This document shows positions 31,848-35,046 of a stretch of 64,000 bases of DNA, piece after piece (the first letter of the stretch is position 1; every line of letters begins with the position of its first letter). The DNA comes from Escherichia coli (GTDB lineage: Bacteria; Pseudomonadota; Gammaproteobacteria; Enterobacterales; Enterobacteriaceae): the NCBI RefSeq assembly GCF_003334255.1, contig NZ_QOWU01000001.1; one strand, given 5' to 3'. A program made the translations under genes and the position numbers. The notes below the pieces were generated by a model. That model was not told the DNA's origin and did not search any database. It saw only the letters and a program-made list of their open reading frames with translations.

Positions 31848-32744
31848 ATGACAGACACACAGTATATTGGCCGCTTCGCCCCCTCTCCTTCCGGCGAGCT
31901 TCATTTTGGCTCTCTGATCGCCGCGCTCGGCAGCTATTTGCAGGCTCGCGCCCGGCAAGGTCGCTGGCTGGTACGCATAGAAGATATCGACCCGCCTCGT
32001 GAAGTTCCCGGTGCCGCAGAAACTATCCTGCGCCAGCTGGAACATTACGGTCTGCACTGGGACGGCGATGTTCTCTGGCAATCGCAACGTCACGACGCCT
32101 ATCGTGAAGCACTCGCCTGGTTACATGAACAAGGACTAAGTTATTACTGCACCTGTACGCGTGCGCGTATTCAAAGCATTGGCGGTATTTACGACGGTCA
32201 TTGCCGGGTGTTGCATCATGGACCAGACAACGCCGCAGTGCGTATCCGCCAGCAGCATCCGGTCACGCAATTTACTGACCAGCTGCGCGGCATTATTCAC
32301 GCCGACGAAAAACTGGCACGGGAAGATTTTATCATTCATCGCCGTGATGGGTTGTTCGCCTACAACCTGGCTGTTGTGGTTGATGATCATTTCCAGGGCG
32401 TTACAGAAATAGTGCGTGGGGCTGATCTGATTGAACCAACAGTAAGGCAAATCTCGCTGTACCAGCTTTTTGGCTGGAAAGTGCCAGATTACATTCATCT
32501 GCCGCTGGCGCTTAATCCACAAGGCGCTAAACTTTCCAAGCAGAATCATGCGCCTGCGTTGCCGAAAGGCGATCCACGCCCGGTACTAATCGCGGCACTT
32601 CAATTTCTGGGGCAGCAGGCAGAAGCACACTGGCAGGATTTCAGCGTCGAGCAAATCCTTCAGTCAGCCGTCAAAAACTGGCGGCTTACCGCCGTGCCCG
32701 AGTCGGCAATTGTAAATTCAACATTCTCAAATGCGTCATGCTGA
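31848..32744 (+). CDS. gluQ: Glutamyl-Q tRNA(Asp) synthetase
   Basis: ORF-track entry 31818..32744 contains [35 protein letters not shown]...; start could be either 31818 or the ATG at 31848. Confidence 0.85.
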
Positions 32745-32803
32745 GCTATGATTAGCCGCTATTTTTTTGTCCTGAATGATGTTTGACACTACCGAGGTGT
32801 ACT

Positions 32804-34201
32804 ATTTTTACCCGAGTCGCTAATTTTTGCCGCAAGGTGCTAAGCCGCGAGGAAAGCGAGGCTGAACAGGCAGTCGCCCGTCCACAGGTGACGGTGATCC
32901 CGCGTGAGCAGCATGCTATTTCCCGCAAAGATATCAGTGAAAATGCCCTGAAGGTAATGTACAGGCTCAATAAAGCGGGATACGAAGCCTGGCTGGTTGG
33001 CGGCGGCGTGCGCGACCTGTTACTTGGCAAAAAGCCGAAAGATTTTGACGTAACCACTAACGCCACGCCTGAGCAGGTGCGCAAACTGTTCCGTAACTGC
33101 CGCCTGGTGGGTCGCCGTTTCCGTCTGGCTCATGTAATGTTTGGCCCGGAGATTATCGAAGTTGCGACCTTCCGTGGACACCACGAAGGTAACGTCAGCG
33201 ACCGCACGACCTCCCAACGCGGGCAAAACGGCATGTTGCTGCGCGACAACATTTTCGGCTCCATCGAAGAAGACGCCCAGCGCCGCGATTTCACTATCAA
33301 CAGCCTGTATTACAGCGTAGCGGATTTTACCGTCCGTGATTACGTTGGCGGCATGAAGGATCTGAAGGACGGCGTTATCCGTCTGATTGGTAACCCGGAA
33401 ACGCGCTACCGTGAAGATCCGGTACGTATGCTGCGCGCGGTACGTTTTGCCGCCAAATTGGGTATGCGCATCAGCCCGGAAACCGCAGAACCGATCCCTC
33501 GCCTCGCTACCCTGCTGAACGATATCCCACCGGCACGCCTGTTTGAAGAATCGCTTAAACTGCTACAAGCGGGCTACGGTTACGAAACCTATAAGCTGTT
33601 GTGTGAATATCATCTGTTCCAGCCGCTGTTCCCGACCATTACCCGCTACTTCACGGAAAATGGCGACAGCCCGATGGAGCGGATCATTGAACAGGTGCTG
33701 AAGAATACCGATACGCGTATCCATAACGATATGCGCGTGAACCCGGCGTTCCTGTTTGCCGCCATGTTCTGGTACCCACTGCTGGAGACGGCACAGAAGA
33801 TCGCCCAGGAAAGCGGCCTGACCTATCACGACGCTTTCGCGCTGGCGATGAACGACGTGCTGGACGAAGCCTGCCGTTCACTGGCAATCCCGAAACGTCT
33901 GACGACATTAACCCGCGATATCTGGCAGTTGCAGTTGCGTATGTCCCGTCGTCAGGGTAAACGCGCATGGAAACTGCTGGAGCATCCTAAGTTCCGTGCG
34001 GCTTATGACCTGTTGGCCTTGCGAGCTGAAGTTGAGCGTAACGCTGAACTGCAGCGTCTGGTGAAATGGTGGGGTGAGTTCCAGGTTTCCGCGCCACCAG
34101 ACCAAAAAGGGATGCTCAACGAGCTGGATGAAGAACCGTCACCGCGTCGTCGTACTCGTCGTCCACGCAAACGCGCACCACGTCGTGAGGGTACCGCATG
34201 A
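32804..34201 (+). CDS. pcnB: Poly(A) polymerase I
   Basis: Frame contains (I)[35 protein letters not shown]...[20 protein letters not shown]; no in-frame ATG near the N-terminus, so start placed at the ATT at 32804 (the ORF track begins at TTG 32783). Confidence 0.88.
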
Positions 34202-34677
34202 CAGTGGCGTATATTGCCATAGGCAGCAATCTGGCCTCTCCGCTGGAGCAGGTCAATGCTGCCCTGAAAGCATTAGGCGATATCCCTGAAAGCCACATTC
34301 TTACCGTTTCTTCGTTTTACCGCACCCCACCGCTGGGGCCGCAAGATCAACCCGATTACTTAAACGCAGCCGTGGCGCTGGAAACCTCTCTTGCACCTGA
34401 AGAGCTACTCAATCACACACAGCGTATTGAATTGCAGCAAGGTCGCGTCCGCAAAGCTGAACGCTGGGGACCACGCACGCTGGATCTCGACATCATGCTG
34501 TTTGGTAATGAAGTGATAAATACTGAACGCCTGACCGTTCCGCACTACGATATGAAGAATCGTGGATTTATGCTGTGGCCGCTGTTTGAAATCGCGCCGG
34601 AGTTGGTGTTTCCTGATGGGGAGATGTTGCGTCAAATCTTACATACAAGAGCATTTGACAAATTAAACAAATGGTAA
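34198..34677 (+). CDS. folK: 2-amino-4-hydroxy-6-hydroxymethyldihydropteridine pyrophosphokinase
   Basis: 159-aa [68 protein letters not shown]...; its ATG overlaps the pcnB stop (ATGA). Confidence 0.95.
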
Positions 34678-35046
34678 TTTATTTATATTGCGAATATAAA
34701 TATTTTCTGAAAATCATATCTCATCTCTTTCCTTAATTACGATTTTAGTTTAAACATCTCTTTGCGGAAATAATATAACTTCCTATAAATAAATATCAAT
34801 CCCATCTCCATACCCTAACCAATTGCACTTGTGAACTTATTTTTACTTAATTTTGAATTAAGTAAATTTAATTTGTTCAAAAGCTTCTAAAGTGCACAAT
34901 AGGCGACCTAATGAACAATGGTTGTAAATTTGGGTAACAAATATCATTGCTCATTAATATCTAACATTTGTTTCTCCTATTTGTGTCATGAATAGTCATT
35001 CTTCAAACATGTAGTCTGACTAATGGAATTTTATTAAAGGATTTTT

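Follow-up and report, generated by a model that had tools for sequence, protein, structure and literature searches.

The AUU start codon of pcnB, the Escherichia coli gene for poly(A) polymerase I, is credited to Binns & Masters 2002 (Mol Microbiol 44:1287) in several later papers (PMC2939334, PMC3561954, PMC9764084), and in papers citing that work it ranks as the second AUU start on the E. coli chromosome, that of infC being the first. As summarized by Mohanty & Kushner (PMC3561954), the 2002 study showed PcnB synthesis to be limited by both the AUU codon and the ribosome binding site, and it included a phylogenetic argument based on AUU starts in many proteobacterial homologues. PMC3561954 also gives a figure of approximately 30-50 molecules of poly(A) polymerase I per cell and states that deregulation is lethal, and both PMC3561954 and PMC9764084 describe the pcnB ribosome binding site as 'poor'. 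According to PMC9764084, a 17-residue N-terminal leader (472-aa numbering) is removed from mature PcnB, in which case sequencing the N-terminus of the mature protein would not be enough to identify the start codon.

Transcription of the locus has also been described. PMC2939334 reports the pB promoter of pcnB and the pS2 promoter, which has the -10 box TAAACT and lies 263-265 nt upstream of the 'translation start codon ATT'. A pcnB-folK transcription unit with the transcription start site (TSS) S-159171 was found using RNA-seq (PMC4161252), and Fig. 3 of PMC1636475 shows the ATGA overlap of the two genes, a dicistronic pcnB-folK mRNA and Rho-dependent termination. Among the overlapping gene junctions of bacterial operons, ATGA is the most frequent, and re-initiation is measurable at d = -4 in model operons (PMC4538824). 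Our searches of the literature found no retapamulin-type start-site mapping for pcnB and no measurement of FolK synthesis or expression, and dependence of pcnB on initiation factor 3 (IF3) was not found in the literature surveyed.

The window, namely the whole stretch of 64 000 nt of E. coli DNA that was analysed, includes the dksA-gluQRS-pcnB-folK region of E. coli K-12. In the RefSeq record for MG1655, the gene order is dksA, gluQRS, pcnB, folK, yadN, and the RefSeq pcnB CDS (locus positions 1705-3102) corresponds to window positions 32804-34201 and folK to 34198-34677. When a 1.8-kb query covering the pcnB locus was used, a match was found in 5425 of 5426 complete E. coli genomes. MG1655 was 100 % identical, and most E. 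coli genomes were only 95-99 % identical over the full 1.8 kb. We note that three of the 5425 matches sit on RefSeq records labelled as plasmids, which are probably replicons with a wrong label or pieces of chromosome. The two coding regions are:

32804..34201, + strand: pcnB CDS, poly(A) polymerase I, 465 codons plus TGA (NF008634, Pfam and PDB matches)
34198..34677, + strand: folK CDS, HPPK, 159 aa (NF007595; RefSeq agrees)

PcnB scored 997 bits against the NCBIfam equivalog NF008634 (cut-off 702), with residues 1-464 aligned to model positions 1-468. The Pfam families PF01743, PF12627 and PF12626 all matched in the expected three-domain layout, with the head at residues 62-193, the RNA-binding region at 220-280 and the arginine-rich C-terminus at 338-457. 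The structures in PDB 3AQK-3AQN span residues 28/29-442, and 3AQM is identical over 28-442. FolK scored 342 bits against NCBIfam NF007595 / TIGR01498 (cut-off 252) over residues 1-159 of 159. There was no Rfam family match within 32700-34700. Elsewhere in the window, Rfam matches above the gathering score were the CssrA sRNA (1147-1256, - strand), t44 RNA (2095-2181, - strand) and the HtrA 5′ UTR thermometer (11051-11096, - strand), all of which are known E. coli/Shigella elements.

For comparison, the locus was collected from 80 Enterobacteriaceae species, each represented by one genome, and some of the counts below are for 79 species. More distant PcnB proteins were obtained using a cluster-representative search, and eight of the corresponding loci were examined. 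In the six-frame ORF list, the pcnB frame is 32783..34201 (+ strand, 472 aa) and opens at a TTG, which is the mechanical opening given in the original prediction. An in-frame TGA stop (32777-32779) is found just 5′ of this TTG, and the ATT at 32804-32806 is in the same frame, 7 codons downstream of the TTG. It had also been claimed that there is no ATG near the N-terminus of PcnB, and indeed the first in-frame ATG (32957-32959) is codon 52 when the ATT is counted as codon 1, i.e. 51 codons downstream. Other in-frame GTGs, which that prediction did not list, are at codons 12 (32837), 29 (32888) and 31 (32894). The positions relevant to initiation are:

32804..32806, + strand: ATT (AUU) initiation codon of pcnB (RefSeq and the literature; at the aligned position in 80/80 species; NF008634 aligns from residue 1)
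32794..32799, + strand: GAGGTG, Shine-Dalgarno (SD) sequence for the AUU, 4-nt spacer (at -10 to -5 in 80/80 species; anti-SD pairing)
32783..32785, + strand: TTG, mechanical ORF opening, not a start codon (no anti-SD pairing; absent in more than half of the 80 species)
32837..32839, + strand: in-frame GTG, codon 12, the start in the 454-aa models of some gene callers (invariant in 80/80 species; no SD)
32957..32959, + strand: first in-frame ATG, codon 52 (Met in 23/79 and Leu in 56/79 species; weak SD; not a conserved start)

Codon 29 (32888-32890) is GTG in the window and ATG in 72 of 79 other Enterobacteriaceae, and hence the first in-frame ATG in most relatives is at codon 29, not codon 52. 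No convincing SD precedes it (-2.6 kcal/mol). Separately, an out-of-frame tandem ATGATG opens a 15-codon ORF (32776-32823) that spans the pcnB SD and the ATT. As an upstream ORF this was rejected, because it is not conserved outside Escherichia.

The assignment of the pcnB start to the AUU at 32804, made in the original prediction, agrees with the literature, the RefSeq CDS and the comparative data. The TAAACT of pS2 is found at 32528-32533, and the ATT of PMC2939334 is therefore the one at 32804 in the window. Around the invariant ATT and GAGGTG, all four bases of the spacer and the sequence further upstream vary among the 80 species, and indels are present. On the other side, there are five variable columns in codons 2-11 and all of them are synonymous third positions, which indicates that this stretch is read in the pcnB frame. 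Within the species, the 61-mer centred on the ATT was found exactly in at least 5417 of 5425 E. coli genomes (99.85 %), and a variant with ATG was found in none. Such a pattern is not accidental. The calculated pairing of GAGGTG with the 3′ end of 16S rRNA, -9.7 kcal/mol, is in the top 0.6 % of positions and on a par with that of dksA. The locus thus has the features of the AUU class, namely an in-frame AUU at the conserved N-terminal edge, an SD at a working distance and no canonical start that accounts for the N-terminus.

The conservation extends beyond the Enterobacteriaceae set. In four relatives with PcnB at 55-67 % identity, ATT is found at the aligned codon and is preceded by GAGGTG or GAGGAT, and the GAGGTG SD occurs in L082, L083 and L086 too, all of them distant relatives. 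One relative at 54 % identity has ATC at the aligned codon, and its conserved N-terminal motif is not preceded by any canonical start; three at 48-53 % identity start with ATG or GTG. Where E. coli PcnB has a 12-residue stretch, distant PcnB proteins (P0128, P0148, P0164 and P0232; loci L087-L089) have a short basic N-terminal motif, e.g. MLIIKKLFKKIF, and its retention in distant proteins indicates that the segment is protein. This motif looks amphipathic; the crystal structures omit residues 1-27. Overall, the comparative data support initiation of pcnB at the AUU at 32804 with GAGGTG as its SD.

The transcript that would carry this start was also considered. S-159171, which we take from the MG1655 coordinates to be at approximately 32759 in the window, fits a -10 box ending at 32752. 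Most of the 80 species share the block at the pB site, gctgagctatgattagccgct, and a few differ there; the most synonymously constrained window of gluQRS is its last codons, where pB lies (32706-32752). The promoter and leader are:

32724..32752, + strand: promoter-like TTCTCA-17-TATGAT in the 3′ end of gluQRS (consensus scan; fits the published main pcnB promoter pB)
32759..32803, + strand: inferred 5′ UTR of the pB transcript, ~45 nt, including the unused TTG (TSS S-159171, PMC4161252)

The unused TTG is also part of a perfect -35 hexamer, TTGACA (32783-32788). A consensus scan and inspection found no -10 box at a usable spacing from it, and it was rejected as a -35 box.

The original prediction stated that inefficient initiation at the AUU limits the level of poly(A) polymerase I, and this matches what has been reported in papers citing Binns & Masters 2002. 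It further described pcnB as weakly translated. Among the rows listed in a published ribosome-profiling data set, pcnB has a translation efficiency of 0.50, which is approximately the 30th percentile of those rows, compared with 1.45 for dksA and 1.96 for panB. The pcnB row has the length based on the ATT and an upstream distance of 60 nt. The description can be kept to the extent that this efficiency is low to middling, but it is not extreme and the SD is strong by sequence. Together, the efficiency of 0.50 and the strong SD suggest that the AUU lowers pcnB output substantially rather than drastically. They also sit awkwardly with the wording 'poor' used for the ribosome binding site in secondary sources. 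A hairpin between the SD and codons 2-4 was examined as an explanation for that wording and rejected, as its stability is low (-4.7 kcal/mol, z = -0.5) and the distant relative L083 lacks it.

Within pcnB, synonymous variation among the 80 species is not evenly distributed, and two blocks stand out:

32807..32830, + strand: codons 2-9, almost no synonymous variation (80 species)
32909..32944, + strand: codons 36-47, second block of suppressed synonymous change (80 species), including the invariant CGCAAAGATATC

The mean synonymous diversity for the gene is 0.39. For 10-codon windows it is 0.06-0.13 in those starting at codons 1-5 and 0.12-0.18 in those starting at codons 33-41, and these are the lowest of 456 windows. 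The window of codons 2-11 (0.084) ranks first of 455. The second block includes an invariant 12-mer, CGCAAAGATATC (32924-32935). The 5′ end of dksA is constrained in the same way in these genomes, whereas gluQRS and folK show no such effect, and the constraint in pcnB is therefore real and gene-specific but not unique to pcnB. Candidate causes were not upheld. Long-range pairing of codons 5-9 with codons 41-46, taken from a consensus fold, gives a duplex that does no better than 73 % of shuffles and is not kept in loci L083-L085; as nearly all of the pairs are invariant, covariation is uninformative (three double-changed pairs versus 2.5 expected). The whole 5′ region of pcnB folds no better than shuffled sequences (z = -0.03). 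The second block was also not explained by the sigma-S promoter pS1 within the gene, for which only one match, the weak GTGACG-18-CATGCT, was found, with CACGCT or a close variant as the -10 box in most species. The low-variation blocks (codons 1-9 and 36-47) and the conserved 61-mer could mark an undescribed cis-acting RNA element that sets the frequency of AUU initiation, beyond the ordinary constraint on an initiation region, but we consider this doubtful. Such a candidate element might be a protein or small-RNA binding site, or a hidden structure.

At the other end of pcnB, the original prediction placed an overlap of the pcnB stop and the folK start in the ATGA at 34198-34201, and this is correct, with the TGA at 34199-34201 and the folK ATG at 34198-34200:

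34198..34201, + strand: ATGA, folK ATG overlapping pcnB TGA (ORF coordinates; PMC1636475 Fig. 3)
34187..34191, + strand: GAGGG, folK SD within the pcnB Arg-Glu-Gly codons, 6 nt before the ATG (anti-SD -6.2 kcal/mol, top 8 % of positions)

GAGGG or GAAGG is kept at the position of the folK SD in most species. The 4-base overlap is found in 74 of 79 species, as ATGA in 38, GTGA in 35 and TTGA in one, and the alternation of ATG and GTG at the folK start arises because the final codon of pcnB is GCA or GCG, a synonymous difference. The overlap has been lost in the remaining five (L007, L014, L035, L040 and L056). Two database proteins, P0017 (630 aa) and P0106 (584 aa), combine the PcnB domains with that of FolK (PF01288) in a single chain, and the probable cause is a frameshift or a lost stop codon at the ATGA, or else sequencing error.

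Starts other than the AUU have been used or proposed. Translation from the TTG at 32783 would yield the 472-aa protein that is given in older annotations and in some still in use. No canonical start comes earlier after the in-frame stop, PcnB models of 472 aa are indeed found in the databases, and in Salmonella the corresponding position is occupied by an ATG. However, this TTG has no SD (+0.4 kcal/mol), no in-frame ATG, GTG or TTG lies between the upstream stop and the ATT in 43 of the 80 species, and the TTG itself is found in only a minority. The segment from the TTG to the ATT contains indels and non-synonymous changes, and both RefSeq and NCBIfam use the ATT. We consider a TTG start to be extremely improbable. 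Almost as improbable is the GTG at codon 12 as the real or main start, with the conserved sequence upstream of it being a non-coding regulatory leader. Many gene-caller models of PcnB (454 aa) do start there, the codon is invariant although valine has four codons, and the leader removal described in PMC9764084 would leave the mature N-terminus adjoining it. Against this, the GTG has no SD (+1.4 kcal/mol), the exclusively synonymous changes in codons 2-11 are those expected of translated sequence, and the NCBIfam equivalog includes PcnB residues 1-11. In distant PcnB proteins that start at an ordinary ATG or GTG, the homologous basic motif is found upstream of the point corresponding to codon 12. 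Codon 12 probably does not serve for initiation. A start at the ATG of codon 52 was proposed in 1989, and a possible truncated form arising from pS1 has been discussed (PMC2939334). In that work, pS1 was active in vitro and in ppGpp-null cells, and two bands were seen on anti-PAP I western blots, but the authors themselves doubt the truncated form. Codon 52 encodes Met in only 23 of 79 species and Leu in the other 56, the SD in front of it is weak (-2.9 kcal/mol), the -10 sequence most like that of pS1 is not conserved, and the product would lack residues 28-51 of the crystallized core. A second, N-terminally truncated enzyme translated from 32957 on pS1 transcripts is thus unlikely, and initiation at the AUU is the reading we retain.

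For folK, the question is whether the overlap matters for its translation. The gene could be translated essentially independently via its own SD, with the ATGA reflecting only compact gene packing, and we treat this as a serious contender, though one we tend not to favour. Consistent with it, the folK SD is well spaced and pairs at -6.2 kcal/mol, and folK is essential, whereas pcnB is kept low. Moreover, in four of the five species that have lost the overlap, the distance from the pcnB stop to folK is 78-137 nt (in the fifth, L056, none was found within 1.8 kb), and among distant relatives there are gaps of 16-143 nt in three and overlaps of 1, 4 and 14 nt in three others. In the window, the junction can fold into a stem (34182-34187 with 34197-34202; -21.6 kcal/mol, z = -1.7) that pairs both the folK SD and the AUG, which argues against independent translation. 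However, a conserved stem masking the folK start was rejected, as the key pair shows no covariation (U-A in 17, C-G in 16, U.G in 13 and C.A in 19) and the mean z is +0.23 in 74 species. A masking structure is not required for coupling by re-initiation. The retention of the 4-base overlap in 74 of 79 species while the folK start switches between ATG, GTG and TTG also points away from mere packing. As re-initiation has been measured at such d = -4 junctions in model operons (PMC4538824), translational coupling of folK to pcnB, as judged from the overlap, is plausible.

We are confident in the account as a whole, namely a pcnB-folK operon, transcribed from pB, in which an AUU start limits poly(A) polymerase I and an AUGA junction leads to folK. 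The pB transcript, from a promoter within the end of gluQRS, would carry a 5′ leader of ~45 nt. Ribosomes would bind at the strong SD, GAGGUG (32794-32799), and initiate at the near-cognate AUU (32804). Poor reading of AUU by fMet-tRNA, and discrimination against it by IF3, would keep the amount of poly(A) polymerase I low, and this matters because excess enzyme is toxic; the role of IF3 at the pcnB AUU is one that we infer. The TTG at 32783 would mark only where the frame happens to open and would be unused. With both genes on one mRNA and the UGA of pcnB overlapping the AUG of folK, ribosomes that end pcnB probably re-initiate at folK and others probably load at its own GAGGG; that some share of folK translation depends on coupling is likewise inferred.

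The original reading of the locus is correct but was already known, as the AUU start, the overlap and the dicistronic mRNA have all been published and both the AUU start and the overlap are part of the RefSeq annotation. The limiting effect of the AUU also belongs to prior work. What is added here is the conservation of the ATT, the SD and the overlap, the lack of conservation of the TTG and of the internal ATG, and the evidence, from sequence comparison, that codons 2-11 are read in the pcnB frame. The enzyme is toxic in excess, and among the devices that keep it scarce is this start codon, one of only two confirmed AUU starts in E. coli. The known biology is unchanged, and the locus is ordinary and correctly read, but there is a practical lesson for annotation. 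Public gene models for this one protein have lengths of 472, 465, 454 and 447 aa and, together with the mechanical TTG start, these discordant lengths indicate that automatic pipelines still mis-start pcnB outside RefSeq.

Compared with the pcnB described by Binns & Masters 2002, the gene, the codon and the proposed role are the same and there is no difference; counts over 80 species and 5425 genomes have been added. The other confirmed AUU-initiated gene in E. coli is infC, which encodes IF3 and whose expression, like that of pcnB, is limited by the rare codon. However, infC is autoregulated, as its own product, IF3, discriminates against AUU, whereas PcnB does not act on its own start codon. 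Like the coupled operons with AUGA overlaps, pcnB and folK are on the same strand and on one mRNA with d = -4, and this arrangement is conserved in 74 of 79 species. They differ from those operons in that folK has its own SD and no conserved inhibitory structure, and coupling in this case is plausible only.
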